64,000 bases of DNA from Blastocystis sp. Blastoise (lineage: Eukaryota > Protista > Bigyra: Opalinata), in contig JBBPEB010000002.1 in the NCBI GenBank assembly GCA_039096225.1, positions 1 to 64,000 on the forward strand. Direction: 5' to 3'. The notes beneath the pieces are model-generated. The model had not been told where the DNA came from. It ran no database searches and was given only the letters and a program-made list of their open reading frames with translations. Every line of letters starts with the position of its first letter. Within the stretch, counting starts at the first letter, position 1. Positions 17,808-42,945 of the stretch are shown here, one piece after another. Position numbers and translations under genes: made by a program.

Positions 17808-17845
17808 TTCGAGAACATTCTATAACATTCTCGAAACTTCTAGAA
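17808..17845. promoter_or_regulatory. Heat-shock-element-like array at inner TIR edge
   Basis: 8 alternating nGAAn/nTTCn pentamers (1 mismatch) about 46 bp upstream of the 17892 ORF. Confidence 0.65.
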
Positions 17846-17891
17846 TAATAAAATTGTATTATTCGTTTTTTCTATTTTTATACTATTTATT

Positions 17892-18059: not shown

Positions 18060-18133
18060 ATTAACGTTTATAAATAACAAAACAAATTGTTTAGTTTTTA
18101 AAAATAATAATAAATAAAACAAATTAAAATTAA

Positions 18134-19618: not shown

Positions 19619-19745
19619 TTAACTTTATTAAAAAAAAATATGACTCTTTTAACAAAACAAAAACAAAGAAATTTAAAAAAAAATAACTTTATACATATTA
19701 ATATACAATCAAACAATATAAATATATAAGTATAACATATTAGGT

Positions 19746-20744: not shown

Positions 20745-20820
20745 TATTTATTGTATTAATTTAAAAATAATTATATAACAAAACAAATAATTAATTATGA
20801 AATAATAAAAGTTAAAATAA

Positions 20821-21858: not shown

Positions 21859-21911
21859 AACAAAACAATAAAATAATTATGGTTTATTTAACAAATTAAA
21901 ATATAAAAAAA

Positions 21912-22949: not shown

Positions 22950-23019
22950 TTTATATGATTTTAATCAACAAAACAAAAAAAATAATTAATGATAAGTTAA
23001 AGATAAATAAATGATTTTA

Positions 23020-23700: not shown

Positions 23701-23799
23701 TTTTATTAAATGAATTAATTATGAAATTATAAACAAAACAATATTTTTTTTAGAATAATATAAAGTTGATACAAATAATAAAAATATCAAATAAATAAA

Positions 23800-25017
23800 T
23801 TAATTGGTAGCACCATCTCTAACAAATTTAACAAATATAAAATGAGCATATAAAGTATAAGGACCAGTAACAGTTCCACCAGTATATTCAGTTAATAATG
23901 AGATATTAACTTCACAACCACTACGCGTATTGACATCAACAACACTTGAAATAGGGAATATATAAATAGGTTGTTCATACCACTTTTCACCATTTAAAGG
24001 AGATTGAGGATGACTATTACATCTCCAAGTATTATAAAGCATAGCATTAGGGATAATTTGTGATGGATTCGTTGTTTTATACGTAGTAGGGAAATCCGTC
24101 TTTGGTAAGATATTTTGACCACCAATTTGGAATTGACATGATTTTAATAATTCAGTTTTAATAGGAATCATGCTCTTCTCTTGATTTGTGAAGTATAACA
24201 TACAATAATCAGGTACGAAAACAACACTTCTATTGGATAAGAATTGTTGTGGAGTTGGTGTACCTGATACTGATGCTTGTGAATAAACAGGTGTAGTGAA
24301 TGCAGATATCTGACAATTATTAGGAATACATTTAATCAAAGCACGTGGATCATTACCAAAATTAATATCATAGATTTGTTGAAGATGAATATAAACACGA
24401 TCAAATTTCAATGCAGTGATTACAGTGGTACCGGTAAATAGATTCTTTAAATAATTTGTAACGAATTGCATCTTCAAAGATTTTACTTTAATAGCATAAT
24501 CAAATGTACCAAGACCAGTAATAAGAGATAAAGGAATAATAACTTGAGCTTTTTCTTTCATTTCCATTCCAGCAATACTACTCAACGTGTTATTATATAA
24601 GCATTCTGTCATACTATACATAGATTTATCAATTTCATCTTTACTTAATTCTTTAATAGTAACAAATTTTCTTGCTTTACTGGATTCAATAGAAGATTCA
24701 GAATAATTAATAAGAATATCTTGACCAGTAGGAGATACAAACGTAAGATCTGTAGTAATTTTATCAATAATACTATAGATATTAGAATGTTGTACAACAG
24801 AACTAGTTGTAGCTGCATTTGTTGTAATATTGAAATTCAGTTCTAAGAATGAATTGCTGAAATCAATAAAAGGACTATCCACTGAATTATATAAGAATTC
24901 AAATGGATAAGGTTGATTTAATAAATCTTGACTTGTAGAAACTAGAATAGGAATTTGTACAGGTTTAATAGTTTGATTTGCCTTTGAAGGTAAGAATTGT
25001 CTTGGGAATCCTTCCAT
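23800..25017 (-). CDS. Major capsid protein, double jelly-roll, paralogue A (405 aa)
   Basis: N-terminal PFIDFSNSFLELNFNIT is typical of Polinton/PLV MCPs; beta-rich; size and synteny fit. Confidence 0.75.
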   Translation of the reverse strand: MEGFPRQFLPSKANQTIKPVQIPILVSTSQDLLNQPYPFEFLYNSVDSPFIDFSNSFLELNFNITTNAATTSSVVQHSNIYSIIDKITTDLTFVSPTGQDILINYSESSIESSKARKFVTIKELSKDEIDKSMYSMTECLYNNTLSSIAGMEMKEKAQVIIPLSLITGLGTFDYAIKVKSLKMQFVTNYLKNLFTGTTVITALKFDRVYIHLQQIYDINFGNDPRALIKCIPNNCQISAFTTPVYSQASVSGTPTPQQFLSNRSVVFVPDYCMLYFTNQEKSMIPIKTELLKSCQFQIGGQNILPKTDFPTTYKTTNPSQIIPNAMLYNTWRCNSHPQSPLNGEKWYEQPIYIFPISSVVDVNTRSGCEVNISLLTEYTGGTVTGPYTLYAHFIFVKFVRDGATN

Positions 25018-25194
25018 GTTAATAATTATTGTTTATATATATTTTTTTTAACAAAATAAAAATAAATAATAATAATATTTTATAATTATTAATTAATTTT
25101 AATTTTTATAACAAAACAAATGATTGTATTATAGAATAGAATAGAATTAATTAAACAAGTTAACGTTAAGAATAGTAAGTAAGAAATATTAAAT

Positions 25195-26688
25195 TTAAAT
25201 ATCACGCACACTACGTACAGCAATCATATGTAAGGTATAAGGAGAACTATCACTTAGATCAGTAGTAGTATGTTTATAAATACCAGCATGAGAAGCTACC
25301 GTATAAGAGGCAGTATCAGCTTCCCAGTGATATTTTGTCTTTTTATCTGTTGGATCAACGTAACTTTTCCATTGACACGTTTGTCCATCAGGAACAGTGG
25401 ATGAATCAATATGTTCATATTTAACATCATGAACATCAACATTACAATCGAAATTCAATTCAATACCACTATCTGATTGGATATTCATTAATGATTTTGT
25501 TGGAATAATATAAATAGGATGTTTAATCCATTCATCATATTTAAGAATAGTTTCAGGATTTGAATTATCAGCCCATAAACAATATAAATTCTTATTAGGA
25601 CAAGATAAACTAGTAGTTTCTGCATTATTGAAGACATGACCTTTTGTAGTAAGATTATGATAATACATTTGAGTAGGGAATTCAGTTTGAGGGAACATTT
25701 GAACATCACCAATCAAACAACTTTGATATGTTGGCCATACATTTGGACTAGCTATATTACTAATAGTTGTTGAACTATAACCATTTGTAAACCAAAATAA
25801 TATATATTCAGGTATAAATGGTAAAGCTCTATTGATATTGAAATGATCACTAGTTATTCTTGTATTTTGATAATCGACTTGAATACATGTAGGTATAGTT
25901 TTATATAATTCATTCGTTTGGAATTGAATATCTTTATAAGTCATTAAATTCATAGTAGCTGATTCCAATTCAAATGTCTTAAACCATTTTTCATCAGTTA
26001 GATGTAACCATTGTGTTGATAGATCTTTACCACCATTCTTGAAATAAATACTCATATTATTATCAATTAAGGATTCAATTGTACTTGTTCTAAATAGCAT
26101 ATTGAAATGTTTAGTTAATATTAATGAATCTCCATCAACACCTAAACCACTAATAAGATATAAAGGAATAGCAATATGAATAGATTGTTTTGGATGTGCA
26201 CGTATATAACGAATAGAATTCAATTCATAAGTATCTGCAGATAAATCCTCACCATACATAGATTTTTCTAAATCATTCTTACTGATATCTTTTAATAAAA
26301 TCATTTTACGACCACGTGAAGCATGTGTACAGTTTTCTTCATATTTTAAAGCACGATCGGATCCATCAGGTAAAGTATAAACCATTTCAACATCAGTGGA
26401 ATCAATAATAGAATAAATATTTGCTTTTTGAACTAATTGATCCAAGAAATATTGACATAATTGATCATAAGTGAAACTAACAGAAGTACCTGTTTCATCT
26501 AAATAAACAGAAACTGGTCCAGCTTTATCTGTTACAGTTGCCTTGACAGTAAGATCCAAATAGGATTGATTGAAATTGATATAAGTATTATCCACATTAG
26601 TCCAATGATATTGAAAGATATAAGGACTTGATAGAATATCAGTATCACTTTGAATAGGAATATTATCTTTAATTCTTAAGATTCTCAT
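25195..26688 (-). CDS. Major capsid protein paralogue B (497 aa)
   Basis: Colinear with 23800-25017: YINFNQSYLDL, NIYSIID, KSMY, IPLxLIxGLG, F(I/V)P(E/D)Y, P(Q/K)T(E/D)FPT, PIYIxP, PYTL, plus extra insertions. Confidence 0.75.
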   Translation of the reverse strand: MRILRIKDNIPIQSDTDILSSPYIFQYHWTNVDNTYINFNQSYLDLTVKATVTDKAGPVSVYLDETGTSVSFTYDQLCQYFLDQLVQKANIYSIIDSTDVEMVYTLPDGSDRALKYEENCTHASRGRKMILLKDISKNDLEKSMYGEDLSADTYELNSIRYIRAHPKQSIHIAIPLYLISGLGVDGDSLILTKHFNMLFRTSTIESLIDNNMSIYFKNGGKDLSTQWLHLTDEKWFKTFELESATMNLMTYKDIQFQTNELYKTIPTCIQVDYQNTRITSDHFNINRALPFIPEYILFWFTNGYSSTTISNIASPNVWPTYQSCLIGDVQMFPQTEFPTQMYYHNLTTKGHVFNNAETTSLSCPNKNLYCLWADNSNPETILKYDEWIKHPIYIIPTKSLMNIQSDSGIELNFDCNVDVHDVKYEHIDSSTVPDGQTCQWKSYVDPTDKKTKYHWEADTASYTVASHAGIYKHTTTDLSDSSPYTLHMIAVRSVRDI

Positions 26689-26781
26689 ATTTCTTTTTAT
26701 TTTAAATAAATATTAATAAATAAATAAAATTAAATAATTTTTATAAATTAATATAAATTATTATTTTATAAATTAGAAAAT

Positions 26782-29267
26782 ATGGAACTTGATGATGATA
26801 ATTATGAAGAACAGACTTCATTAGAAGAGAAGGATACTCGTATTAAAACACATGTAGTCCCTATTGATGTTCATTGTATTGATAATCAATTCAATATACA
26901 TTTATCGAATTCTATTGATATCACTAAAAATATCATTTCTTATATTGATCTTAATTTAATTGGTAGTGAAAGTGTGCCTCTATTTGATACATTCACAAAA
27001 ACACAAATATTCAAATATATAAATACTCGTGTTAATGGAAATAATAACAAATTCAAACAATCACTTTAGATCAGAAAAATTATTCAATTCCACAATTATT
27101 AGAACTATGTCATTTTGATATATGTGATAGGCCATTAATAAGTGAATCTCCTGATATCGATTCTACTGTTAAAATTAAGAAAATTCCAACAATTACAATT
27201 AATAGAGATGATTTTTATTGTGAATTTTATATTGCTAAAACAAGACGTGGTTTTAATTTCCCAAAAGGAACTTATACAGATATAGAATTTTGGTGGATCG
27301 CTGTTTGTTTGGTATCTTCTGTATGGTTAGATAACAAAAATCGACTGATGATGAAATATGATGATGATAATATAATATTATATCGACCCAAAACAACTTC
27401 TTTTCCTATTCCTGTTAGAACAACAGGGACTTATTCATTAAAAGAATATGCAAATAATGGTGTATTTAGTAAGTTCATTCATGATATTCCTACACAAAGT
27501 AGTGATGGAACAATTCAATGTGTAATTAATGAAGAACATGATTTTTATTTTCCAAATGTAACTTCTCCAAATATAAATATGATTCTGAAAATGGAAAATA
27601 GTTTATTTACTGGTTTATTTGACGGTAATGGAACACTAATACACACTGGAAATAAACCAGAAATTGTTTTACAAAGAATTAAGAATCCAGTTAAACATGA
27701 TGATATATTTAATATCAAAACATTAATTACTGTTGAAGATGGATATAATACAATGATTGTTCGACAATTGAGTGGTTATGATGGTGTTCATGAAACTACA
27801 TTCACTGTTCCTCCAGGTGACTATATTGAAGACGAATTCTATGATTTATTAGAAAGTTCAATCAATAATACAATTTATACTGATTATTTAAATATATCCA
27901 AAGATGCTCAAACTATGGACGATAAGGATGGATATATTTTATATTTATCATTTCAAGATATTGATTCAACATCATGGACATTTACAGCTATGGATATAGA
28001 GCACTCCTTATTTAAGTATCGTGGTGCTCTACATAATATACGTCCTGATTTAGTTTATGATGAACAAGGATGTTTTGCTTGGCATGTATCTTATGGTAAA
28101 CAATTATTACCAGATACACCTGTTGATTTGAATACATTAGATTTAGATGGTAATTATAAGTGTTATACTGATAGTCATCATATAGATTTCTCTCAAGCTC
28201 AAGAATTAGGTGAAATCTTAGGTTATAATAAATTAGGTCATGATGAAATTGTTAATTATGGTGTTCATAATATTGATAGTAGTCGTCCAAAAGGAATGTT
28301 AATAGCTCAATCGAATATAGTAGATAATAGTCAGAATTCTTTATATTCATTCAATGTGAATAATTATAAAGGCAATAATGAATTTCATGATATTATGAAT
28401 ATTAATGTGTCTCCTTATTTAAATACTATTCAAGATATTATTATACGATATACTGATAAAAATAAACAATATGTGAATTTCAATAATAATTGTATTTTAA
28501 GAGGATTCTTAGAATTCTCAGATACAGTCGATACGATTCAACCTAGTGAAACCATTAAGAAATTATGTTTGAATTGTTTAACAGCAGACACACAATTCTA
28601 TGCTGAATATCCTACATTGAATATCCAGAATAAGATCTTAAAAGATATTATTATTCAGAATGATACTGATACGATCCAAACAAATGCATCTAAATTATGT
28701 ACTGGATATATAAATGGATCTTATTATCCTACATTTAGTTTTCCTTTATCTGATAAATATGTTACATATAGTAATATAAATTCTCCAATCACCATTGATC
28801 ATCATATAGATTTAAGATTTGATGAATTATTCAAAGGAAATATCATTTGTAATATATGTGAACCGAATGGTAGTGATATACGTTTCAAAGCTTATGATGA
28901 AGTATATTGTGATTTTAGTACGAGTAAGAATTTAATTTATGAATTGAAGAAAACCAATGTCTATGGATATCAATATTTAACTAATATACAAATTATATCA
29001 GTGTATGGTCAATCCACTGATTACTTATATCCTATTTCATTAAGATGTTTTACTAATGAATATGAGAATAATATTCATGTTATTGATACTACAAATCTAC
29101 CTTATTACTATTCTAATGGTATTAAATATGAAGGTATATCAAATAAGATCAATAAGAATGTTTATTATTGTAATCGTAAATTATTAAAGTTATTACCTCA
29201 TGATAATATGTTCTTTATTACTTGTGATTATCCTTGTGTTGTTTTATTAACTATCTCTTATATATAA
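26782..29267 (+). CDS. Large penton-like/spike protein (~828 aa if joined), split by a frameshift near 27048-27069
   Basis: The downstream frame is open from 27048 with no ATG until ~27345 and overlaps the end of ORF 26782-27069. Penton-like motifs ITLDQKNYS, FPKGTY, VPPGDY, DIIIRYTDKNKQYVNF. No 3'-end motif between the parts. Confidence 0.6.
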
Positions 29268-29335
29268 ATATTTTAATTCATTTCATTTAAATTAAAAATG
29301 TTTTGTTATATTATTCATTTAAAAATTATTAAAAA

Positions 29336-29758
29336 ATGGAGCCTAAATCTGTATCTGAATCCTTACATTCTTTATCAAGTACAAGTTCAACAAGTTCAGA
29401 TAGTTCAACAACAACCACATTATCCGAAGAAGAAATAGAAAAGAAAAATACTTTATTAGAATTTATTATAAAAGCTATAAAATGTTTATTTGAGAAATCA
29501 ACTGAATTCTTTCAATTAATTGTTAAAAATATAGATATTCATTGTAATTGTTGTAATCCACAAACAAAGAAAGTCTATTATAAGACAATGAAAATACAAC
29601 AAACTATTATAGAAGAAGAAGTCAAACATATATCTGAAGTCTTGAATGAATTAGAAGAAATCGATTCTAATCAAAATGAATCAATACAAGAATTAGCTGT
29701 TCAATTAATGAAATTAAATATAAGTGTTGATTCTATTGTTCAATCTCTTCATTTATAA
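29336..29758 (+). CDS. PLV hypothetical protein (140 aa)
   Basis: Intact ATG ORF with Ser/Thr-rich N-terminus, HCNCC and helical C-terminus; 3' motif at 29793. Confidence 0.7.
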   Translation: MEPKSVSESLHSLSSTSSTSSDSSTTTTLSEEEIEKKNTLLEFIIKAIKCLFEKSTEFFQLIVKNIDIHCNCCNPQTKKVYYKTMKIQQTIIEEEVKHISEVLNELEEIDSNQNESIQELAVQLMKLNISVDSIVQSLHL

Positions 29759-29825
29759 TTCTATGAAATGTTATAAAATATTAATAATAAATTTGTTTTG
29801 TTTATAAATAATTTAATTTTTAATA

Positions 29826-31622
29826 ATGCAATCAACAGGTTATTCAGATAAAGATTGTGAAGAATTCTTTACAAATTGTATAGATCAATTATTACATTGG
29901 AAGAAAATACAATTATCAACAAGTATAAATTGGAAGAAATGGATAAAGACAATATGTAAGAAATTTCGTAATGAAGAACGAATTCAAATAGATGATATGG
30001 AAGAACCATTCTTTTGTGTAGAAGTGTTAACAGATCCATTTCAATTTCAAAATGTTATGCAACATACACAAACAGAAGCTCCTGGACAACAAGGTAGATT
30101 ATCCAATACTACTGTAGCTAATTATATGCAAATGATTACTTATATAATGAAAAATATATCTATTTGTACAGATGATGAAGATATCATTAATTATAAAGCA
30201 TTTACTCCACAAAATATAAAGAAATGGGAACATTTATGGGGTTCTTTACAAATTGATGCTACTTATTCAAGACATTATGAAATCACTCAGAAAATTATTA
30301 ATTGTGAAGCTGATTGGGGAGAAATCATTAATATCACCAAAAAGAATTATTTAGAGAATCCTAATGATTTATATTATGTGAATAGTTATTTATTAGTTTT
30401 AACTTATGATACATTATGTGCTCGTAATGATTATAATGATTGTGTAATCTATACTCGTGGTCAACAAATTCCTTTATCGTTAAGAAGAACAACCAATTAT
30501 ATTGATTTAAATACTTTGACTATTCATGTGAATGATACAAAGAATCGATTTGAAATTGGTAAGAATGAATATCCTACTTATCAGTATTTATCAGAAGAAT
30601 ATTTAAATGTCTTAGCTAGATCCTTACGTTTATTTCCAAGACATTATTTATTTGTTACTGAGAATGGTGGTAAAGTACGTGATTTGAAATTTGGTGATGA
30701 ATATATAAAACCTCATTTAGGATGGATTTATAAAACACAACAGAATAATTCTTTAATTAATGGTTGTGATATTATAAGACATTTATTTGCTCAATATTAT
30801 TATAGATTATCAAGAGAAGCACAATTCCAACATGATGATTCAGAACATGAATCTAAAGGTGTAGAACTCTTTGAAAATTCTATTATGAAGATGTTACACA
30901 GTCAATCAACACATATGGAAAATTATATATCTCCTTATTTATCTTCTCATTCAACTAAATTGCAAGATTTAGATAATAAAACAAGAACATTTCATATTGA
31001 TATGAATAATATTACTTATACAAGAGAAATTAATCAATTGAATAAATTATTATTTTTATGTAAACGATTTAATGATCGTATAGAACAATATGAAGAAGAC
31101 TATGAAGATGTATTTGGTAAAGAGAATTTCAATATGAAATCAGAATCGATATTATCTACATTAGAACAATATTCATCAGATAATGATACTATAATGATTA
31201 CATTAAGATATTATAAAGATCTATTAAAGCATCATTATCCAGATAAAACAGATTTAGAAAATGAATTACCTGTAGGATGTTCATTAGAATCTGAAGAAGT
31301 CCCAGAGAATTCTAGAGATCGTTATAATCGTTTTATACGTAATAAACAATTATTACCTGATCATTTACATAATAATACAACAGATTCAGAATTAACGAAT
31401 ACTCAAGCATCTCTTATGCAACAGAATACCCAAGATGAAAACTCTACACCTATAGTTATGAATAATTCAGATACTTATGCATTACGTAGTCTTTCTACTA
31501 TGCCTCCTTTAGACCCTATTCATCGGGGTCATGGTTTATTGAAAAAACATAAAGGTAATGCATTCTTTAAAGTCAAAGTCCCTAAAAAACATTTTCATGG
31601 AATTCAATTTAAATTTTATTAA
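29826..31622 (+). CDS. Tyrosine recombinase-family protein, large (598 aa)
   Basis: Catalytic series LCARNDY (R), NDTKN (K), CDIIRHLFA (xxxR), MLHS (H), THMENY (Y), colinear with ORF 40432; long C-terminal extension. Confidence 0.75.
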   Translation: MQSTGYSDKDCEEFFTNCIDQLLHWKKIQLSTSINWKKWIKTICKKFRNEERIQIDDMEEPFFCVEVLTDPFQFQNVMQHTQTEAPGQQGRLSNTTVANYMQMITYIMKNISICTDDEDIINYKAFTPQNIKKWEHLWGSLQIDATYSRHYEITQKIINCEADWGEIINITKKNYLENPNDLYYVNSYLLVLTYDTLCARNDYNDCVIYTRGQQIPLSLRRTTNYIDLNTLTIHVNDTKNRFEIGKNEYPTYQYLSEEYLNVLARSLRLFPRHYLFVTENGGKVRDLKFGDEYIKPHLGWIYKTQQNNSLINGCDIIRHLFAQYYYRLSREAQFQHDDSEHESKGVELFENSIMKMLHSQSTHMENYISPYLSSHSTKLQDLDNKTRTFHIDMNNITYTREINQLNKLLFLCKRFNDRIEQYEEDYEDVFGKENFNMKSESILSTLEQYSSDNDTIMITLRYYKDLLKHHYPDKTDLENELPVGCSLESEEVPENSRDRYNRFIRNKQLLPDHLHNNTTDSELTNTQASLMQQNTQDENSTPIVMNNSDTYALRSLSTMPPLDPIHRGHGLLKKHKGNAFFKVKVPKKHFHGIQFKFY

Positions 31623-31666
31623 TTTTAAAACAAAACAACTTTTTATAATAAAAAATAAATATAAAT

Positions 31667-34600
31667 TTAATTTGGTATAGCATATAAAGTATTATCTATT
31701 AAAATTCGTTTTGTTGATGACGTATTATGATATTGATCTTCACTATAAACAATTTCTTCTTTCTTAGATAAACAATTGGATAAACAGAATAAATCTGTAT
31801 CCACACAATTATTATAAGTATTATCAATCATTAAACCACAAATACCAATAGCATTCCCTCCCTTATAGAAATTTGAAGTATGTTTTCTATGAATATTCAC
31901 AATATCTATAGAATTAAATGTATCTTTACTACTTAAACAACCAAATAAAGCATTTGTAAATTTATCTAAATCTTTCTTAATCGTAAATTGATTATTATTA
32001 TTCACTTTCTTATAACTATTAAAAATATCTTCAATAGTAACTACATTCAAATAATAAGGATCTATAGTAATATGGTTATCAACAAAAGATTTCAAATCAT
32101 ATCCTTCTGTACTACGATCAAAGAATCGTTTCTTACATTCACTTATATGATATTCATTATCTAATTCATGCATATCTAATTGCATACTAGAATAGAAATA
32201 ATTACTTACTAGATAACTAAAGATAATTGAACGATTCTGATAGAATTTATCGGATAGAGTATAATCCATTTCATAATGATTTGGTTTCAATCTCTTTTCT
32301 ACTGTCTGTTTACGTTTCGGTAAATTATGATCTACATAATCTTCATATAAATTAGCATTACCAGGAGGGAAATAACGACAACATGATGGTAAGAAACAAA
32401 CTCTTCTTTCAATAGGACCAGCATTCACAGCAGTAGGTTGGATATTACTTGTCATAAATAAAGTACCCGTGAAATGAACTTTTGTAAATATATTACTGAA
32501 TAATTTACGAGCACTAGCACCTTCTTTCTTTTCTGCTATTTCTTTAAAGACTTTAGAAGAGAATGGATTGAATGTTTTCTTTCTACCAGTAACATCTTCT
32601 TCTATTAATTCATTCATATAATACATAGTCTTATTAGACATATCTACAATCTTAGGAGCTATAGATGTTTCTTCTAAATTATCTGGATTTACTATAATAC
32701 ATTGATTACTACCTACAATACGAGAAATTAAATCAGTTGTTATTGTTTTACCATTACTACCTGTACTACCATATAATATATAAGAAACAGTTTTCTGAGT
32801 ATTGACATAGAAAGCAGTGGTTAGGATACGTAACATAATACTTTCATATTTCTTATCGAATTCACAATATCTTGCATAATGTTGTTCAAATAATTGGATA
32901 ATATCTTTCTGTTCATTATTAATATTCCAACTTACATTAAATTCAGTATCAATTAATAAATCTTCAAATACCATATCTTCTTTATGATATGGTTGGATAT
33001 AATATTGTCTAGGATCTTCTTCTGTAGATTCTTTTGGATATAAATAACCAAGTTGTGTATAGATAACACGTTCTTTATGAACCATATACGTATCTAAATA
33101 TTCTTTATAAGATTTACCATAAGTCTTCAAATAACGATTCAACCATTCTTTATAATGATATTCATTAGTAACAGAAGCAGACATTATTTTATCAACTATT
33201 TTTTGATGTTGTTCATTCTCTTTGGAATATAATCTTGATAGTTTGAATTTCTCTACAATCGATTTCATAAATGTAGTTATTTTGGTTTCAAAGAAATTAA
33301 TATCATAATTATTCTTACAACGTCTTAAGATATTATATTCATCAAATGTATATAAGATAAAATTATCTTTATCTAATATAATAGAAACAATTTCATTAAA
33401 TTCTAATAATTGAAATAACATAACTAATGTTTGTGAATCTACAAGATTAAAGGATTGAATACATTCTAAAATAGACATAAATATGAAATCATTATCATCA
33501 TCTTTATTAAATAATTTATTCTCCATTAATATCTTCAAAATATAATTATTCGATAAATGAGTAGGATCAACTTGTATATGATTCCATGTAGATTCAATTA
33601 CATCATCACTTCGATCATGGCCATAACGTAATGAATAATTTTTAAATAATTCTAATCCTCTTGTTGTATTACAAATCTGTTTTGCTGCACAACATAATTT
33701 ATACCAAGTATTATGAGATTCAAAATAATTCATATCTTCAATAGAACCAATCAATAATAAATATCGTTCTAATAAAGCTTCTTTAGATGCTGTAGTATCC
33801 AATATAGTATCTGTAGAAATCAACATAGGAATATCTTTAATATCTTGTATAGAACATAATATAGTACGTGAACAATTATTTAATCTTTCATAATAACGTT
33901 TATAACGTGAATATTGTTTTAATTTATAAAAGATAATAGGATTAATAATATCACTTATAAGATCATCTTCATTCTTATAATTCAATAATGTTTTGAAATA
34001 ATAATGTTCATTGATTTCGCCTTCTATTTTCTTCCATGATTTATTGGTATATTCTTCATATAATTTATAAGTAGATGGAGAATTATCTTTACTACAACCA
34101 AGAAACATACAACCATTATTCTTTCTGGGTTTACCAATAACATTATAATCAATGAATTCTTTTATATCTAAATTATATGTTTTACATAAATCAACCAATT
34201 TGGTATTCAAAATCATACTATTATATAAGAAAAATAAATAATCACCATTTACAAACCAATTTGTATATATATGAATTCCCCATGAATAATGTATTTCATT
34301 ATGAACTGTCTTCTTATTCACTTCTTTCTTTGTATACACAAGCGAAATAAATTCTTGATTATAATAATGAATACAATGATTACATATTTCTTCAATAAAT
34401 TCATGAATAAAAGAATCTGTTAGAAAAGAAAAATCATTTGATATTTGGTGATAATCTAAATCAAACCATAATCTTCTATAATTAGTTGATGTATTACAAG
34501 GAGTACAATCAATATAATGTAATAATTCTTTTGGATTTTGATAATTAGTAAATAGACTTTTATAAAATGGTAATGGATTTGGTATAATAATTTCACTATG

Positions 34601-34669
34601 ATTATCTTTTGAATTATCATGATTAAAGGAACCAAAAGTATAAACAAAATGAATTTGTGAATTTTCCAT
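31667..34669 (-). CDS. AEP primase - PriCT-2 - D5/SF3 helicase (~1000 aa)
   Basis: AEP motifs LWFDLD, GIHIY, FID. PriCT-2-like NTWYKLCCAAK...LELFKNYS. Walker A YGSTGSNGKT, YYMNEL, LFMTSN, IERRV. First ATG at 34669. Confidence 0.9.
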   Translation of the reverse strand: MENSQIHFVYTFGSFNHDNSKDNHSEIIIPNPLPFYKSLFTNYQNPKELLHYIDCTPCNTSTNYRRLWFDLDYHQISNDFSFLTDSFIHEFIEEICNHCIHYYNQEFISLVYTKKEVNKKTVHNEIHYSWGIHIYTNWFVNGDYLFFLYNSMILNTKLVDLCKTYNLDIKEFIDYNVIGKPRKNNGCMFLGCSKDNSPSTYKLYEEYTNKSWKKIEGEINEHYYFKTLLNYKNEDDLISDIINPIIFYKLKQYSRYKRYYERLNNCSRTILCSIQDIKDIPMLISTDTILDTTASKEALLERYLLLIGSIEDMNYFESHNTWYKLCCAAKQICNTTRGLELFKNYSLRYGHDRSDDVIESTWNHIQVDPTHLSNNYILKILMENKLFNKDDDNDFIFMSILECIQSFNLVDSQTLVMLFQLLEFNEIVSIILDKDNFILYTFDEYNILRRCKNNYDINFFETKITTFMKSIVEKFKLSRLYSKENEQHQKIVDKIMSASVTNEYHYKEWLNRYLKTYGKSYKEYLDTYMVHKERVIYTQLGYLYPKESTEEDPRQYYIQPYHKEDMVFEDLLIDTEFNVSWNINNEQKDIIQLFEQHYARYCEFDKKYESIMLRILTTAFYVNTQKTVSYILYGSTGSNGKTITTDLISRIVGSNQCIIVNPDNLEETSIAPKIVDMSNKTMYYMNELIEEDVTGRKKTFNPFSSKVFKEIAEKKEGASARKLFSNIFTKVHFTGTLFMTSNIQPTAVNAGPIERRVCFLPSCCRYFPPGNANLYEDYVDHNLPKRKQTVEKRLKPNHYEMDYTLSDKFYQNRSIIFSYLVSNYFYSSMQLDMHELDNEYHISECKKRFFDRSTEGYDLKSFVDNHITIDPYYLNVVTIEDIFNSYKKVNNNNQFTIKKDLDKFTNALFGCLSSKDTFNSIDIVNIHRKHTSNFYKGGNAIGICGLMIDNTYNNCVDTDLFCLSNCLSKKEEIVYSEDQYHNTSSTKRILIDNTLYAIPN

Positions 34670-34755
34670 GATTATTTGACTTATAAATAATGAAAATAAA
34701 TATGGTATAAAATTCAAAACAAATAATATATTAAAGATTCTAGAAGTCAGTTTTG

Positions 34756-34904
34756 GAAGCTTCTAGAACATTCAAGAACCTTCTAGAACCTTCTAGAACA
34801 TTCTATAATAGTAAATATTACTTTATATTTTAAATGTTCTAGAACCTTCTAGAACCTTCTAGAACCTTCTAGAACCTTCTAGAACCTTCTAGAACCTTCT
34901 AGAA
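34756..34904. promoter_or_regulatory. Two long heat-shock-element arrays upstream of the primase-helicase
   Basis: 34756-34803: 10 alternating GAA/TTC pentamers. 34837-34904: TTCT(AGAACCTTCT)6AGAA, 14 perfect pentamers. Confidence 0.7.
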
Positions 34905-35014
34905 CATCCTTTTTATACTTTAGTGTTTTAAATGTATATACAATAAACAAAACAATTTTCAATGATTTTTTACAAGTTTATAAGTAAAAATAGAAAAATA
35001 AACAAGAAAAATAA

Positions 35015-35638
35015 TTAAATTTCAATTGGTTCTTGACTATTAATATATGTACATGAATGAGGCCATCCATTTTTATCATATAAAATACCATCCCAGAAAT
35101 ACATTTGTTTTGAAGGATCTCTTTTAATCTTGTTAATACTCTTAGCATGAACAACTTCATAAGAATAAACTTTACCTTTTTCATCATAAAGAAATCCATC
35201 TTCCATATGGAATTTCATAATATCAAAATCATCATCTTTAGAGTTCGAATGTTCTTTAGAATCTTCAGAACATAAAATAGTAGTTCTATCACTTTCTAAA
35301 AGATCTTCAGTATTGATAATATCTTGAATATCTTGTTCTTCATTAAGTTGTTGAGTATAAATATCAGCAGCGAATTCTTCATAATCTTCAAGACCTTTAA
35401 TAACCGCGTTTATACGTTTTAAAGCTGATCTATAGTTTTCGACTTCGAAAGAAGCAAGACGTTCTTTAGATTTTGCAATACCCAATAGATTCTTTTCTCT
35501 ATTCAATTGAGACTGATGTAAATCAATATCACGAAGAACATTCTTATGAACTTCAACAGCCTTCTTAGAATTCTTAAGAAGTTCCATACGAACAGTTTGA
35601 AGACATTTACGGGAATCAGCAGAAAGATTAAATTGCAT
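35015..35638 (-). CDS. PLV hypothetical coiled-coil protein (~207 aa)
   Basis: ATG at 35638 (MQFNLS...); 4-unit HSE at 35750-35767 upstream; 3' motif at 34946. Confidence 0.7.
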   Translation of the reverse strand: MQFNLSADSRKCLQTVRMELLKNSKKAVEVHKNVLRDIDLHQSQLNREKNLLGIAKSKERLASFEVENYRSALKRINAVIKGLEDYEEFAADIYTQQLNEEQDIQDIINTEDLLESDRTTILCSEDSKEHSNSKDDDFDIMKFHMEDGFLYDEKGKVYSYEVVHAKSINKIKRDPSKQMYFWDGILYDKNGWPHSCTYINSQEPIEI

Positions 35639-36036
35639 TATAATCGCGAATATCGTTACAGAGAGAAAATTTGTATTTATCAAAATGAAATAAATAATAC
35701 ATTTAAATGGAATATTAAATATTCTAGGAGACAGTGTAGAATCTCTATGGAATGTTCTAGAAGGTTCATTTGATTGGCTAATTTTGTCGACTTAGCATTT
35801 AGTATTTGTGTTTCAATGACGAGCATAGTCGGCATCTGTAATCTGATTGGATAAAAAAATTAGTAAAACACAATTAGACGATGACGACGATGTGTCATAC
35901 GAAATAAGTTATTTTATTGGCTTATTTTCCAGCTGGAAGCAATAGGCTTTTGTTAGCAACTGAAATGAAGAACTGTACACTAAAAATAGTATATTTAATA
36001 TATTGTATAAAAATACTTTTGAAGGTTTAAATAATC

Positions 36037-36564
36037 ATGGAAATTCCTGATAGTCTTTCTGCCAGTTTATCCCCTTTCGGTCAAGCCATGATATCCCCCT
36101 TGTTGAATCCATTTGAAAATAGTGTTTCTGCAAATCCTATGGCTTTACCCAATGATAATGATTTCTGTTTTAATTCGCGTGACGAAATCATGTTTGAAGA
36201 TCCACCTCAAGATATTCATCCAATCAATGATGTTTACGTATCTAAAAATCCAGATAGATATCATTCGGTTAACAATCAACCAATACAATTTCAAGATCAA
36301 GTAAATACAAATCCTGATAAGCAAGCATTATTATTTACAAATGAGGAGTTAACAAATATATCCAGTCAATTCGAATCTTTATTTCAAACTATTGAAACAG
36401 CTGATAATATATTAAATGGTATTTATTGTACTGTTGATCATTTAAAAACAAAGATTGAAAGTCAGAAACAAGATTTGAAACAGATTCATGATGATTCTAA
36501 AGAAATTGTTTCATTATTATCCGAATATTCTATTTCTTCTATGTCTGAAATATTTGATCATTAA
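36037..36564 (+). CDS. PLV hypothetical acidic/coiled-coil protein (175 aa)
   Basis: Intact ATG ORF, divergent from 35638 across a promoter with several ATTGG (CCAAT) boxes; 3' motif at 36588. Confidence 0.7.
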   Translation: MEIPDSLSASLSPFGQAMISPLLNPFENSVSANPMALPNDNDFCFNSRDEIMFEDPPQDIHPINDVYVSKNPDRYHSVNNQPIQFQDQVNTNPDKQALLFTNEELTNISSQFESLFQTIETADNILNGIYCTVDHLKTKIESQKQDLKQIHDDSKEIVSLLSEYSISSMSEIFDH

Positions 36565-36654
36565 TTATTTTTATTTAATTAATTATTTTGTTTTGTTTAT
36601 TTTTTTTAAAATTAATTACACAAAGTTTAAATGGAAAATAGAATAGTTTCAAAT

Positions 36655-36764
36655 AGAATTCTTGAATGGTCTAATGGATCTATTAAAGAAATATGTAACC
36701 ACAGTATCATGGTTCGATTCCGTTAAAATGTTTCCATTAGATTATTCAAGTGTTCTTTTTTTTT
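36655..36764 (+). ncRNA. Putative Pol III hairpin RNA (tRNA-type promoter; VA-RNA-like)
   Basis: A box TGGTCTAATGG 36667-36677 and B box GGTTCGATTCC 36711-36721 (44-nt start-to-start, as in tRNA). Stem 36661-36678 pairs with 36733-36750 over 18 bp. T9 terminator at 36756-36764. Confidence 0.65.
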
Positions 36765-36820
36765 CTAGAACCTTCTCGAACCTTCTAGAACCTTCTAGAA
36801 CCTTCTCAAACCTTCTCGAA
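36763..36820. promoter_or_regulatory. HSE array upstream of putative SSB
   Basis: 12 alternating TTC/GAA pentamers (1 mismatch), ~77 bp before ATG 36898. Confidence 0.65.
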
Positions 36821-36897
36821 AATTGATTCATTTGAAAAGAATATCGTAAAATATTAGTATTAAAATACTTATATTTTTACTAAATACTTAACTAAAA

Positions 36898-37491
36898 ATG
36901 TCTACAACTGAATTTAAAAAACCTACTATTCTTGATACTTCGAACTTTAATTTACAATGGGATGACACCAAAGAAAATGCTGTTCTTTTAAATAATAATC
37001 ATCGTGTATGTATTTCTACTGATGCTACACCATGTTTATTTGGTTATATTGTTACACGTGATAAATGGACTTTATTAACAATTGAAGATGATAATCAAGT
37101 ATTCTTAGCTGCTTATAAAGAACTTTATCGTAAATTATGTGAATTATGTCCTGATGGTGATATTGTTAATTTTGTACGTATGGATAATGGTAAATATAAG
37201 ATTACAATTAAAGTACCTATTAATGCATCGAAGAATGTTACTATTGATATTACTGATAAAAGAGATAAGAAGATTAATATCGGTAAAGATCCTAAGTTAA
37301 CTTACGAAGAAATACGTGAAAAGTATATTCCACCAAATACGTTATGTAAAGTATTATTTACAATACATGGTATTCATCGTTATAATAACAAGTATTATAT
37401 TGGTTTATATGCTCGTTCTATTAAAGTCATCGATAAATCTACGAAGAATACTAATAGTAATGATACTATTATTGATTTAACTAATTTATAA
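36898..37491 (+). CDS. Probable single-stranded DNA-binding protein (OB fold, T7 gp2.5/NCLDV-like)
   Basis: 197 aa; C-terminal IPPNTLCKVLFTIHGIHRYNNKYYIGLYARSIKV resembles the closing strands of viral SSBs. Pattern recognition only. Confidence 0.5.
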   Translation: MSTTEFKKPTILDTSNFNLQWDDTKENAVLLNNNHRVCISTDATPCLFGYIVTRDKWTLLTIEDDNQVFLAAYKELYRKLCELCPDGDIVNFVRMDNGKYKITIKVPINASKNVTIDITDKRDKKINIGKDPKLTYEEIREKYIPPNTLCKVLFTIHGIHRYNNKYYIGLYARSIKVIDKSTKNTNSNDTIIDLTNL

Positions 37492-37567
37492 ATTTTTAAT
37501 GTTAAATTTATTTTTTATTAATATATTTGTTTTGTTTATAAATAATTTTATAATTGAAATAAAAAAA

Positions 37568-39295
37568 ATGCAAAGTTGTATATTAGGAATGCCAAGTCCT
37601 GGTACTTTTGGTATGAATTTAATTTCAACTGGAAAAGAATATAGGCGATATAATACACAACCATTACATAAAATGGATCAATATAATCCAATATTTCATG
37701 AAATAGGTCCAAATTCATCTATGCCTGTGTCTACTTTAGAAAGTAAAGAAATACATGATGGTAAAGAAGATGATTATGTAGATCGTTCTAAAACATTTGG
37801 TAAAGATGCTGTTCCACAAGGAAATGGTGCTTTAATTCGTGCTAGAGCAGCAGGTAAAGGTATAATGAAAGCAGCTGGTCCAGAAGAAGATAAAATAGAT
37901 GGTGAAGATCGTCAATATAAAGTATTAAATCCATGTAAACCAAGACGTAAATCTGGTAGAGGAATTATTCCAAATAAATCAGAAATCAATAAATTAGAGA
38001 ATAATCAAGGTTCTGGTATTGGTGATGCAATTAAAAATAAAGTAAAAGATATGTATCAACGAAATGTATTAGATATAAGAGATGCTATTGTAGATAAAAA
38101 AGCTAATAGAAAAGCTCGTGATGCATTAGCTATTTTAGCTCAATATGTTGGTGATGGTCATCATGATCTTGATGATGAATTCAAAAGATTCTATGAACAT
38201 AAAATAAAACGTGGTGGAAAGATTCCTATATCTGTTGCTTCAGCAATTATGAATGCAATTAAAAATAAGAAAATGATTATTAATCCAAAATTAAGAAGAA
38301 TGTTAAGACCCTCTATTATACCAAAATATATAGATTTAGATTCAGCTCAAAGTGGTGATGGTATATTAAGAGTAAAAAGAGGTGGTGGATTCTGGAGCGG
38401 ATTAATGGATTATGCACCAGCTCTATTAGGTGTAGTTGATAAAGGTATGGATTCTTTTGCTAAAGGTAGAAAAGCTTATTATGATACACATTTGGCACAA
38501 CAATCAAGTGAATTAAATGATATGGAATTTGAAATGGAAAAATTAAAACGTCAACAAGCATTAAATGAAATGAAAAAGCAAATAGGTAATGGTATAGTAA
38601 TGGGAACAATTAATGATGGTTACGATACAGTTGAACGACAATCAGAATTATTAGATCAAGAAGTGCAACCATTAAGAGATTTGCACAGTATGAAACAACA
38701 ACTTAGAAAGAATCTTCCTGTTCGTCAACCACCTCCTCCAGCAGCACCCATTCAACCACAACCAGAAATTGAACCTGAATTGAATGTTGATACATTTGAT
38801 ATACCTCAAAATGATACACCAAGACATCCACAAACTCAACAACCTCCTCAACCTTATAAACCCATGTCTCGTGATGAACAAAGTTATCCTTATAAGATTT
38901 ATGGTTTCCCTCAAAATGATAAAGAGAAAGTCGATAGAAAATGGAAAGAAGATGAAAGGGATAAACGAATAGCTGCAAGAAGAGCTAAACGTAGAGGTTA
39001 TGGTGGTCGAGTTAAATTAAGTAAAGCAGAATTCTTAGAACGAATGAGAAGAGGAAAAGAAGCTAAAAAGAAAAGAGGTGGTGATTTGAATCCATTAGTA
39101 TCATTTTATACAGATTTTATAATACCTGCAGGAGTGGCACGAAAAAAACGTAAAATACAAGAGGCTGATTTAAAACAATTACAAATTATAAAACAGAAAA
39201 GAGATAATAATGAAACATTAAATGCAGGTGACGAATTGTTTTGGAAAAAAAAGAAATATATGTTATCAAAAAACTCAGGGGAGGGGATCTGGTAA
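37568..39295 (+). CDS. Basic core polyprotein with about 12 GxG/GG protease-site-like motifs (575 aa)
   Basis: Likely ATG 37568, after the upstream gene's 3' motif. Motifs QGNGA, AGKGI, SGRGI, QGSGI, KRGGK, SGDGI, KRGGG, IGNGI, GYGGR, KRGGD, SGEGI; Lys/Arg rich. Confidence 0.75.
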   Translation: MQSCILGMPSPGTFGMNLISTGKEYRRYNTQPLHKMDQYNPIFHEIGPNSSMPVSTLESKEIHDGKEDDYVDRSKTFGKDAVPQGNGALIRARAAGKGIMKAAGPEEDKIDGEDRQYKVLNPCKPRRKSGRGIIPNKSEINKLENNQGSGIGDAIKNKVKDMYQRNVLDIRDAIVDKKANRKARDALAILAQYVGDGHHDLDDEFKRFYEHKIKRGGKIPISVASAIMNAIKNKKMIINPKLRRMLRPSIIPKYIDLDSAQSGDGILRVKRGGGFWSGLMDYAPALLGVVDKGMDSFAKGRKAYYDTHLAQQSSELNDMEFEMEKLKRQQALNEMKKQIGNGIVMGTINDGYDTVERQSELLDQEVQPLRDLHSMKQQLRKNLPVRQPPPPAAPIQPQPEIEPELNVDTFDIPQNDTPRHPQTQQPPQPYKPMSRDEQSYPYKIYGFPQNDKEKVDRKWKEDERDKRIAARRAKRRGYGGRVKLSKAEFLERMRRGKEAKKKRGGDLNPLVSFYTDFIIPAGVARKKRKIQEADLKQLQIIKQKRDNNETLNAGDELFWKKKKYMLSKNSGEGIW

Positions 39296-39861
39296 AGAGT
39301 AAAGATGAGAAATTAATTCAAAATTCAATGAATTGCGATAATCCTATTATATCTGATAAAACTCGTCATGTTACTCCTAGATCCCCTGATAATTTCAAAC
39401 AAACTCTATCTCAATATTGTAATATACCAAATTCTTTAATATCTCAATTATATAATTATGCTTATTTAAATAAACCTACCTCTTCTGTTGCTTGTGATCG
39501 TGCTGAAAATGTTATGAAACAATTAAATAAAACGAATTCTCAATCTTATAATTATTATAATAGTTATGATGATTTTGAACAAAATATAGATCAAGATCAA
39601 ACTAAATTTAATATGATCTTTCATGAAAGTCCTAGTGATCCTTATAATGGTCATTTTGAAGCTGTTATTTATAATGGTAATAAAAACATAGAACACTATT
39701 CATCATTAGGAAATGAACCTACTTTTTCAAAATCATTTATTCAAAATCATAATATTCAATATAATCCTATTCAACACCAAAAAACTACAAGTAATGCAAA
39801 TGGTTGCTTTTATTATTCTTTACTTTATTTACTTTCTAATGGAAATCTTATGCCTTGTTAA
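39241..39861 (+). CDS. Adenain/Ulp1-like maturation cysteine protease, in -1 frame to the upstream ORF
   Basis: GHFEAV (His), EHYSSLG (cf. YFDSFG), QHQ...NGCFYYSLLYL (Gln, Cys). Overlaps the upstream ORF; first ATG only at 39328. Confidence 0.8.
   Translation: MEKKEIYVIKKLRGGDLVKSKDEKLIQNSMNCDNPIISDKTRHVTPRSPDNFKQTLSQYCNIPNSLISQLYNYAYLNKPTSSVACDRAENVMKQLNKTNSQSYNYYNSYDDFEQNIDQDQTKFNMIFHESPSDPYNGHFEAVIYNGNKNIEHYSSLGNEPTFSKSFIQNHNIQYNPIQHQKTTSNANGCFYYSLLYLLSNGNLMPC
39268..39387 (+). promoter_or_regulatory. Predicted -1 programmed ribosomal frameshift signal
   Basis: In-frame A AAA AAC 39268-39274 and a 7-nt spacer. Stems: 39282-39292/39377-39387 (11 bp), 39297-39302/39371-39376 (6 bp), 39304-39309/39362-39367 (6 bp). 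Confidence 0.75.
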
Positions 39862-39983
39862 AACATTCTAGAACATTCTAGAACATTCATTTTGAACTGG
39901 CTCTATTTGTAGAATCTTTAATTTATTATATTAGTATTTTATATAATTAATTTGTTTTGTTTAATCATTGGTTAATTTAAATA

Positions 39984-40358
39984 ATGAACAAGAAATATCT
40001 TAGTTATTCTTATTTTTGTCGTGTGATGAAGAATCTAAAAGAAGAAGGAATTAAATCCAAAAAGAATGAAATAGCGAATCTATTAGAACAATTTTTAAAT
40101 AATAATAACAACAAGAATCTTAGTGATTTGCAATTGAGTTACTGTAGAAATATGTTACTTTATATAGATGATCCTGTGATTCATCAACGTCTTGAAATGC
40201 TATTGGATAAACAATATATGAAGAATGAGAATCAATATCAAGATGATAAGAATCTTATTCAACCCAATAATATGTTTATGCCAACTATGAAAAGTAATCA
40301 ACAACAAAATCAATATCAAAATAATAATAATAATCTATCTTTCTTACCTTTTAATTAA
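39984..40358 (+). CDS. PLV hypothetical protein (124 aa)
   Basis: Intact ORF; 5-unit HSE at 39866-39888 upstream, 3' motif at 40382. Confidence 0.65.
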   Translation: MNKKYLSYSYFCRVMKNLKEEGIKSKKNEIANLLEQFLNNNNNKNLSDLQLSYCRNMLLYIDDPVIHQRLEMLLDKQYMKNENQYQDDKNLIQPNNMFMPTMKSNQQQNQYQNNNNNLSFLPFN

Positions 40359-40431
40359 TTTTTATATCCTTTTATTACTAGTTGTTTAGTTATATTCAAA
40401 ATTAAAACAAAACAAACATAAAAACATAAAA

Positions 40432-41367
40432 TTATTCAATTAATTTTTTAAATAAATTATTATTTTCTAAAGATACATAAGAATTAATATGTGTATAATC
40501 ATTATGACATAAAGCAGAAGCAGAATTTTCTATATCTTGGAATGTATTGGTTGTAGTTGTAGCATATAATTTTCTTAATGCATTAATGGTCAATTTTGGA
40601 TGGATTTGTTTTAAATGCTTATTCACAAACCAATCAAATGCTTTAGTAGTAAATCCAGTTCTTACAGAAGATTCAAATATAAATTTACGATTTGGATTTC
40701 TTTTTAAGAGTAATTCTAGATCTTCAATCAATTCTTTTGGTGCATCTAATTGAATTGTAGAGTATTTACCAGCAGTTTTATAATCATTTAATAGAATAGA
40801 ACCAGTATGTTTCTCTTTATCATAAACAATATAATTCTTATGAATAGCTGGATCAATAGTATCTTCTGGTGATAGAATGAATAATTGAGCATAATCAGCA
40901 CGAGCAGGAGGAAGATAGGAGTAAAAATCTAATATTAATCGTAATGGATTATAATTTTCTAATTTATCGTGATATTCATGTAAATATGGAGTCGTAATAC
41001 CATCTTTAATAAGATCTTGAATTAAAGTACGTTTCTTATTATCCAGATATTTTTCATACATTGAATTGATAATCACATAAAATTCACACCATTTATTTAA
41101 AATACCTTCTTTATTTAATGAAGAAACATTACGTATAATAAATAATATCAATTCACATAACGATTTCATTGGACTAATTTTGATTTTACGTTCATTTACC
41201 ATATAATCCATGAATGAATAAGGATTCTTCAAGAATTCTGAGAACTTTTTAAATGGTAATGGGAAAATATATAAATTGAAATAATTGGTTAAACGTTTTT
41301 TCCAAATATCAGAATAATTTGAATTCTGTATAACCAAAAGATACTTGTCATAATTTGTATTTTTCAT
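40432..41367 (-). CDS. Tyrosine recombinase/integrase (~311 aa)
   Basis: LPPARADY (R), NDYKTAGKY (K), LTINALRKLYAT (xxLR), LCHN (H), THINSY (Y). First ATG 41367; HSE array 41456-41503 upstream. Confidence 0.85.
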   Translation of the reverse strand: MKNTNYDKYLLVIQNSNYSDIWKKRLTNYFNLYIFPLPFKKFSEFLKNPYSFMDYMVNERKIKISPMKSLCELILFIIRNVSSLNKEGILNKWCEFYVIINSMYEKYLDNKKRTLIQDLIKDGITTPYLHEYHDKLENYNPLRLILDFYSYLPPARADYAQLFILSPEDTIDPAIHKNYIVYDKEKHTGSILLNDYKTAGKYSTIQLDAPKELIEDLELLLKRNPNRKFIFESSVRTGFTTKAFDWFVNKHLKQIHPKLTINALRKLYATTTTNTFQDIENSASALCHNDYTHINSYVSLENNNLFKKLIE

Positions 41368-41465
41368 TGATTTTCTCAAGTAGAATCTCTAAAACTTCTA
41401 TTTTCAAAAGAATAATACATAAGAAAATCAAAATAAAATATCTAAGATTCTCATGTTCTCGAATG

Positions 41466-42223
41466 TTCTAGAAGTTTCGAGAATGTTATAGAATGTTCTC
41501 GAAAATTTATATTTTTCCATAACGGTCGCTCATGTTTCCAAAAGTCTCTCGTTATAATCGTGGTGGTGGGTACATCTTTTTACAAGACCACACCACCACC
41601 AGCTTTTCTTTCACCCACTATAAATACATACCTTGATCACTTTACTCTTTTTATATATATTTTTTTATGATTATCATGACTTTTTATATTATTTATTGAT
41701 CACTATACATACATTTTTATTTTATATATTCCCGTGATTATTTTTATTATTTCTTTTTAGATAGAACCATCCATTTCATCTTTTCTCTATATAAAGGGAG
41801 GGTCGGGGTGTGTGTTTATTTAGCACATTCTGTGCTTCTTTTCGTATTTCTTTCTGTATTCCCGTGATTATTTTACTCACTTTACCAACGATGGAGCCAT
41901 TTCCCATGAATATTCCCTGTAAAGGGGAGGGTTGGACTGTGTATTTTATTTCTTTTATGATTACTATGAGTTTCTCCTTGATCACTTTACGTTTCACGTT
42001 GGAATCGGAACACAAATAAATTAAAAATAAATAAACATGGGGAAAAATAAAAATACACACACACTACCCTACACTCCCATGGTTATTTTACTTCAGAAAT
42101 GTTATTAATTCTTCCGTCGAGAACAAAAAGGGGGGATGACTTCCCCGCTTATGGCTGCGCGCGTCGCGCAGACTCTATGCGGGGTTTGCATACCCCCTTC
42201 TGCAGTTCGAAGAACGGAAGAAT
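41466..42223 (-). repeat. Right terminal inverted repeat (758 bp)
   Basis: Reverse complement of 17088-17845, including the terminal hairpin 42108-42223. Confidence 0.97.
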
Positions 42224-42945
42224 GAATTAAATATAAATAAACGTGATTATTATGAAATAAATATGCGTGCTAGCAGCATATTAATAATTCGTATAAATCG
42301 ATATTAGTTAATTAATTATAAACGATAAATTCTTGTTTTCATTATAAAACGAAAATATTGAATAGGAATTAGAATTATTTCGTAATATTGAGAGTAAACA
42401 TTCTAGCGGCGTGGTTCGCTTGTTAAGCATATTTGAAAATATTTTATTTTGACAATAATTATTTCCAACATAATGAAATAAAACTATTTTGTTATTTTAT
42501 CACACATTTTCGAAAAACAATAGTGATATCGTTAATAATATGGATAATTTATAACGGCATAAATGAATATATATATGATTTTTATATATTAATTTCATGA
42601 ATATCTAATTGTATCTGTGTATAAGTGATATATAGCCATATTAACATATAAATATATTAATTATGCTATTATTATCATTTTAATTGTGAATGGCAATTAA
42701 ATATGGTATATATTAGTATATTATAATGTACTATTAGTGTAAAACAAAAATCTAGTAAACTAATAACATTAGTAATGGAATATATACAAACATATAATTA
42801 GTAAAATATATTAAATAAAATAATATATACGCATATATATAAAGAGACTATATAATTAAAAATAATGAAATATATATATAATATATAAAAATATATAAAA
42901 ATTATATATTAAAATAGTTAATGAAATGATAAAGTAATATTTTTA

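Follow-up and report, generated by a model that had tools for sequence, protein, structure and literature searches.

The window, by which is meant the whole 64,000-nt stretch of DNA analysed here, contains a 25-kb element that is a Polinton-like virus integrated in a protist genome, likely of Blastocystis, as judged from its terminal inverted repeats (TIRs), its double jelly-roll major capsid protein (MCP), its ATPase and its replication genes, together with a weak candidate for a recombinase. The features assigned to the element as a whole are the following.

17084..42227, no strand: Polinton-like virus, 25 kb, with TIRs of about 760 nt (17084-17845, 41466-42227)
21912..22949, minus strand: P-loop ATPase, likely packaging ATPase, with PHROGs support
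23800..25017, minus strand: double jelly-roll MCP (pLDDT 73; Sputnik MCP, E 2e-10; MELD virus sp., E 2e-16)
31667..34669, minus strand: primase-helicase-like protein (phrog_1156, E 6e-9)
40432..41367, minus strand: possible tyrosine recombinase, weak (Phage_integrase, E 0.08, below the cut-off)

The capsid ORF reached this pLDDT when folded with a 35-sequence alignment (single-sequence fold, pLDDT 34), and the model matches the double jelly-roll capsids of virophages and PBCV-1, the best match being a MELD virus protein. Among the element ORFs scanned, no PolB was detected. Blastocystis sp. Blastoise supplies the nearest named protein relatives (92-99% identity), and the low GC of the window fits the 21-23% given for tortoise-associated Blastocystis (PMC10690189). 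Eleven members make up the cluster of the ATPase, one of them seen on 8 contigs, and divergent genomic copies stand at 45-69%. Metagenomic relatives of the element proteins were found on contigs of up to 27 kb (76-80% for the ATPase, 56-62% for the capsid protein). These belong to a large metagenomic family of related viruses, with contigs of 20-27 kb, in which a single protein may be present on as many as 134 contigs; a scan of the viral contig collection did not find the family.

The hairpin unit that is the subject of this report lies inside the TIR-bounded element, in the intergenic region between the ORFs at 36037-36564 and 36898-37491, where the first-pass annotation had placed it. It occupies a slot of its own, after the poly(A)-type motif of the upstream gene and before a heat-shock-element (HSE) array.

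36037..36564, plus strand: upstream ORF, 175 aa, no assigned function
36589..36597, plus strand: TGTTTTGTT motif after the upstream ORF, likely a poly(A)-directing signal
36655..36759, plus strand: predicted Pol III transcript of ~105 nt, placed by the boxes, the closure of the stem and the T run
36655..36678, plus strand: 5' arm of the terminal stem, pair probabilities 0.75-1.0 except at one U-U position
36667-36677, plus strand: A box TGGTCTAATGG, 11/11 consensus, within the 5' stem arm
36697..36714, plus strand: predicted 5-bp apical helix occupying the 5' half of the B box, pair probabilities 0.93-0.99
36711-36721, plus strand: B box GGTTCGATTCC, 11/11 consensus
36733..36756, plus strand: 3' arm of the terminal stem, in which TT facing the A-box GG makes two G-U pairs
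36756-36764, plus strand: T9, a Pol III terminator-type run right at the stem end
36763..36800, no strand: HSE-like array (TTCnnGAA repeats) before ORF 36898, with degenerate units to about 36821
36898..37491, plus strand: downstream ORF, 197 aa, no assigned function, 4 relatives found

The TGTTTTGTT motif follows 15 of the 18 element ORFs on the coding strand (18076-40414). It is longer by one base than TGTTTGTT, a Blastocystis motif that, according to PMC5608401, lies 5 bases beyond the poly(A) site. Because a copy stands at 36589, after the upstream ORF, the mRNA of that gene likely ends before the hairpin. In tortoise isolates the TGTTTGTT downstream element is described as not enriched (PMC10690189), and the 9-nt TGTTTTGTT may be the form used in these isolates or one retained by the virus.

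Arrays resembling HSEs are located at 17808-17845, 34756-34904, 35750-35767, 36763-36800, 39866-39883, 41456-41503 and 62355-62392. They are read as HSE-like from the TTCnnGAA repeats that they contain. The arrays precede the primase-helicase gene, ORF 35638, ORF 36898, ORF 39984 and the recombinase-like ORF and are also found in the TIRs; the capsid-module genes are not preceded by one. Host heat-shock factor may turn on the early genes of the virus, and 2-3 HSF domains per Blastocystis isolate are tabulated in supplement file 7 of PMC10690189. Host-type signals of both kinds, TGTTTTGTT and the HSE arrays, suggest nuclear transcription by host enzymes, which would make access to Pol III plausible. 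Relatives of the capsid protein are many and those detectable for ORF 36898 are few, so the region of the unit may be variable. A sequencing-run contig (run type guessed) over 36887-37462 differs from the window in 7 letters; the unit lies outside it, and it has no bearing on expression. Two further runs yielded no contig here.

Boxes, terminator and stem of the unit

Both boxes match their consensus at 11/11 positions and stand, as first annotated, at exact tRNA spacing: the 44 nt from the first T of the A box to the first G of the B box equal the T8-to-G52 distance of a tRNA and are inside the 30-60 nt range for a Pol III type-2 gene. The B box at 36711 is the single full match to GGTTCRANYCC on either strand of the window, and the two boxes form the sole A+B pair in its 64 kb. 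Exact pairs appeared in none of 1000 Markov-simulated 25-kb elements, nor in any of 400 elements simulated with the unit masked from training. When one mismatch per box is allowed, 0.075 pairs are expected per simulated element, and the real window still holds this pair only.

The longest T run inside the unit is 3, and the first run of T4 or longer downstream is the T9 at 36756, the first T of which is the last position of the stem, in keeping with the earlier description of a T9 directly following it. The last two T's of the run are also the start of the HSE array. Absence of an internal T4 discriminates weakly (2226 of 5010 windows compared also have none). Transcription is predicted to start at A36655 or at A36651/36652 and to end at the fourth T of the run.

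When read as plus-strand RNA, the arms 36661-36678 and 36733-36750 pair at 18/18 positions (16 Watson-Crick, 2 G-U). The earlier claim that they pair fully is thus correct for RNA, and, because two of the pairs are G-U, the arms are not a perfect inverted repeat as DNA. The extension of the stem to ~24 bp is likewise correct as 24 positions out to 36655/36756, of which 23 are paired (3 G-U) and one is a U-U mismatch. The unit folds at -34.2 kcal/mol (z -6.1), with 0 of 200 shuffles as stable, and its 18-bp stem is the longest uninterrupted one in the element, the runner-up having 15 bp. In a coarse energy scan, which used 110-nt windows at a step of 20 that were not centred on the unit, the unit window ranked 30th of 2504; those ahead of it came from the GC-rich TIR ends and the palindromic heat-shock arrays, plus a few more. 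Taken by themselves, the inner 54 nt (-3.7 kcal/mol, z +0.5) fold no better than shuffles. Within them, the apical helix pairs 36697-36701 with 36710-36714 and is preferred to the T-arm proposed in the first-pass annotation, which can be drawn with 4 bp, has a pair probability of about 0 and costs 4 kcal/mol.

The minus strand of the unit also folds (-29.1 kcal/mol, z -5.9). All three wobble positions are G-U on the plus strand, the strand that the boxes would transcribe, and two of them are opposite the A-box GG, so that promoter and pairing are both preserved; three such positions do not suffice as proof of strand-specific selection. Taken as observed, the Pol III-type hairpin unit of this protist Polinton-like virus is real and non-random. 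Judged from the sequence, the best reading is that it is likely a Pol III type-2 gene for a panhandle RNA of ~105 nt, in line with the hairpin ncRNA of the first-pass annotation; it is not a VA RNA.

A role at the level of DNA has also been considered, in which occupancy by TFIIIC and Pol III would create a boundary or a nucleosome-free site between the upstream gene and the heat-shock promoter, with the RNA as a by-product. The unit does sit between the poly(A)-type motif and the HSE array, its T run overlapping the array, and tDNA barriers, which are established in yeast and animals, offer a precedent. However, a 24-position stem closing at the terminator is not needed for such a role, and none of the window's six other HSE arrays has an A+B pair. 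The TFIIIC-bound insulator that had been suggested would explain the boxes but not the stem and the terminator, and is regarded as quite improbable.

Comparison with tRNA genes and known Pol III RNAs

ARAGORN, run at its default and at thresholds of 95 and 90%, detected no tRNA in the unit, and an intron-containing tRNA called at 85% was rejected as implausible. The cloverleaf (acceptor, D, anticodon and T arms) is absent, which rules out identity as a tRNA and agrees with the first description of a locus with two intact boxes and no anticodon or acceptor cloverleaf. No Rfam family was found for the unit either: eight weak matches at E up to 10 did not include the VA model, and the best of them, MIR9486 (26 bits against a cut-off of 100 bits), was rejected as a generic hairpin. 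An Rfam scan of the element gave 0 matches at gathering. The tRNA and Infernal-type check that had been recommended, carried out with ARAGORN and Rfam, therefore yielded no tRNA and no family.

Searches by pattern returned mostly tRNA genes. Among the matches listed for viral contigs with the same two boxes, 110/111 were tRNAs, and none of those listed that were folded had such an enclosing stem. A metagenome scan with the box pattern gave 13 loci (9 called tRNA, 4 tRNA- or SINE-like, none related), and a pattern of B box, T run and TTCTAGAA gave 18 (12 called tRNA, 6 tRNA-like or unrelated). The HSE-array pattern was found at 1 locus, which was without a B box. No relative was found in the viral contig and genome contig collections, and a tblastn search of phages gave none either.

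The unit may have arisen by remodelling of a tRNA gene, since MELD viruses carry tRNA genes, as recorded in section 10 of PMC8502044. These genes have in common with the unit that tRNA-type boxes are found on a Polinton-like element; the unit differs in that it is without a cloverleaf, internal, single and enclosed by a long terminal stem. Another explanation is a neutral relic: a decayed captured tRNA gene or the head of a tRNA-derived SINE, combined with a local inverted duplication. The exact tRNA spacing, the tRNA genes of MELD viruses (PMC8502044, Fig. 6 legend) and the ease with which inverted repeats arise in AT-rich DNA are in its favour. However, decay would not leave 22 box positions intact while wiping out all other arms, and the GC-rich boxes have been kept within DNA of 27% GC. 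Two further forms of this explanation are a hairpin at an mRNA 3' end, against which the upstream mRNA has its own end motif ahead of the unit and other genes have no comparable trailing hairpins, and a DNA hairpin, against which both strands fold weakly and about equally as DNA (-14.9 and -14.4). Altogether, a neutral origin of these kinds is improbable. Boxes that are intact where the cloverleaf is absent are counted here for a Pol III gene of the decoy type discussed below.

VA RNAs are about 160 nt long, compared with ~105 nt for the unit. Adenovirus VA RNA I and II share with it intragenic A and B boxes, an A box in the terminal stem and an oligo-U end. They are also alike in having a stem of the length cut by Dicer, which in VA RNA carries box A and is cut to 21-23 nt (PMC7589676), and in coming from a virus of the same broad capsid lineage. 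In contrast to VA RNA, the unit contains neither GGGU nor ACCC (neither word in 36655-36760), lacks both a central domain and a long, very stable apical stem, as the inner 54 nt illustrate, gives no Rfam VA match and is found in a protist host. Membership in the VA RNAs is ruled out by the absence of GGGU/ACCC, of a stable apical stem and of an Rfam match. What survives of the "VA-RNA-like" label is the A box in the terminal stem and the oligo-U end, and on the decoy reading the unit would work, by analogy, like the terminal-stem half of a VA RNA. Nothing connects the unit to adenovirus VA RNA by descent, and this host offers no evident target for antagonism of vertebrate dsRNA sensors; PKR, the inhibition of which is a further mark of VA RNA, is vertebrate.

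Vault RNA and the EBERs of EBV are panhandle RNAs made from Pol III type-2 genes, about 90-170 nt long and ending in U's. The unit has no Rfam match to connect it with them, and the InterPro table for the host genus shows no matching row for vault.

The pre-miRNA genes of bovine leukemia virus (BLV) are compact type-2 genes in which the A box is in the 5' arm, G-U pairing is allowed and the terminator is at the stem end (PMC5622367). All of this is shared by the unit, which has a stem of about 21-24 bp, an A box in the 5' arm and, with the start placed as above, a short 3' overhang. The BLV hairpins differ in being shorter, with a small loop and with the B box within the hairpin or directly downstream (PMC5622367), whereas the unit is single and carries its B box in a 54-nt top in place of a short terminal loop.

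Host machinery and possible functions of the predicted RNA

For three low-GC tortoise isolates of Blastocystis, supplement file 7 of PMC10690189 gives counts of 2/1/0 for Piwi, 3/1/0 for PAZ and 2/1/1 for RNase III domains. In the same file, Pol III and several TFIIIC subunits are present in these isolates, the TFIIIC B-block-binding domain stands at 0 in all three, RdRP at 0 in all eight Blastocystis isolates and the Exportin-5 C-terminal domain at 0; dsRNA-binding domains and exportins occur in the genus. The InterPro table of that study shows no matching row for Dicer, vault or oligoadenylate synthetase, and its RNase III proteins could be rRNA-processing or mitochondrial enzymes rather than Dicers. 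The words RNAi, Dicer, Argonaute and Piwi are absent from the main text of PMC5608401, and nothing relevant on Blastocystis RNAi was found in the open-access literature. By these tabulated domains, a small RNAi kit is present in the genus, the Dicer among it being putative, and the Piwi, PAZ and RNase III domains make an RNAi-related role of the unit possible.

The reading tentatively preferred here, at somewhat less than an even chance, is that the virus-encoded panhandle RNA would be a competing substrate, or decoy, for a host Dicer-like RNase III and Argonaute. Host TFIIIC would probably bind the boxes, with Pol III starting near 36651-36655 and stopping in the T run; the product would be ~105 nt long, with a 3-4-nt U overhang that depends on the start chosen, and the start purine would place the A box at about +13 to +17. 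Once made, such an RNA would very probably form the terminal stem, topped by 54 nt of loose structure. If both steps hold, it is slightly favoured that the stem, which is one Dicer cut long, would be bound and cut starting at the open end, and that abundant RNA and its 21-24-nt products would occupy the small RNAi kit and so spare the virus from silencing by it.

No target complementary to the arms was found in the element: 16 21-mers were tested against the window at <=4 mismatches with 0 matches, and the best arm duplexes in the element do not stand out from those of 12 shuffles per arm. Lack of a complementary target in the element fits a decoy better than self-regulation, and the decoy is favoured because the genus has a small RNAi kit and neither arm was found to have a target in the window or element. 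Several points speak against it. The 54-nt top is far larger than the loop of a pre-miRNA, the identity of the host RNase III as Dicer is putative, and the RdRP, Exportin-5 C-terminal and TFIIIC B-block-binding domains stand at 0 in the supplement cited above; moreover, this is a single sequence, the minus strand of which folds nearly as well.

The first-pass annotation had offered a Dicer decoy or a small-RNA precursor, and the second of these is given less credit here. By analogy with the BLV pre-miRNAs, the RNA might be the precursor of a guide small RNA, that is, a viral miRNA silencing host genes. Its architecture is near that of the BLV genes, and Piwi and PAZ domains occur in the genus; the lack of targets and the shuffle-level duplexes just described argue against such a guide, as does an arm sequence constrained by the A box. 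This reading is considered improbable.

A true Pol III RNA could also act on a target other than RNAi, as a panhandle of vault-, EBER- or Y-like outline that sequesters La, an exportin or a stress or dsRNA sensor, or that assists a protein of the virion or of replication. The evidence from promoter, stem and terminator applies equally to this explanation, which is helped by the 54-nt top unlike that of a pre-miRNA, by the thin host RNAi kit with its putative Dicer and by the dsRNA-binding domains and exportins tabulated for the genus. On the other hand, no partner can be named, the InterPro table lists no vault or oligoadenylate-synthetase rows, the top is unstructured and the stem length matches one Dicer cut. 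We regard an action outside RNAi as unlikely, with some weight of its own.

Adenoviruses, gammaherpesviruses and some retroviruses, all of vertebrates, are known to make Pol III hairpin RNAs, and adenoviruses are thought to come from the Polinton-like virus lineage. In the open-access literature, no Pol III hairpin RNA was found described for Polinton-like viruses. To return to the decoy, its widest form would be that protist Polinton-like viruses make their own Pol III hairpin RNA against host RNAi. The VA-RNA strategy, with the A box in a terminal stem of Dicer length, would then extend far beyond vertebrate viruses, occur in the presumed source lineage of adenoviruses and be older, as an anti-RNAi device, than PKR, and a whole gut-associated virus family would carry the unit. 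This is placed somewhat on the unlikely side. A real Pol III hairpin RNA in a protist virus would provide a counter-defence gene for a group of viruses with almost unknown host interactions, would imply antiviral RNAi in Blastocystis and would allow the origin of VA-type RNAs to be tested in a host that can be cultured and has many endogenous copies.

Other features of the element

A second related element begins at 61497 and runs past the end of the window at 64000, which falls before the region that would correspond to the unit. Its TIR is 98% identical, with an insertion near 62207-62345, and the first large ORF is diverged between the two elements (406 vs 494 aa). A short acidic ORF just inside the left TIR, after the HSE array (17891-18059, plus strand), is kept in the second copy (62438-62609, plus strand). 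Three basic proteins, encoded at 37568-39295, 20821-21858 and 18134-19618, have repeated glycine-rich putative cleavage sites and no Pfam or PHROGs match, and the ORF at 39328-39861 (plus strand), also without a Pfam or PHROGs family match, possibly encodes a cysteine maturation protease, as judged by motif. Beside the capsid gene, a 497-aa ORF (25195-26688, minus strand) appears by eye to be a capsid paralogue and is a candidate second jelly-roll protein. The GC-rich TIR ends (17084-17207 and 42104-42227) can fold back with a 15-bp closing stem at ~-48 kcal/mol per 110 nt, and these fold-backs are the most stable folds in the element.
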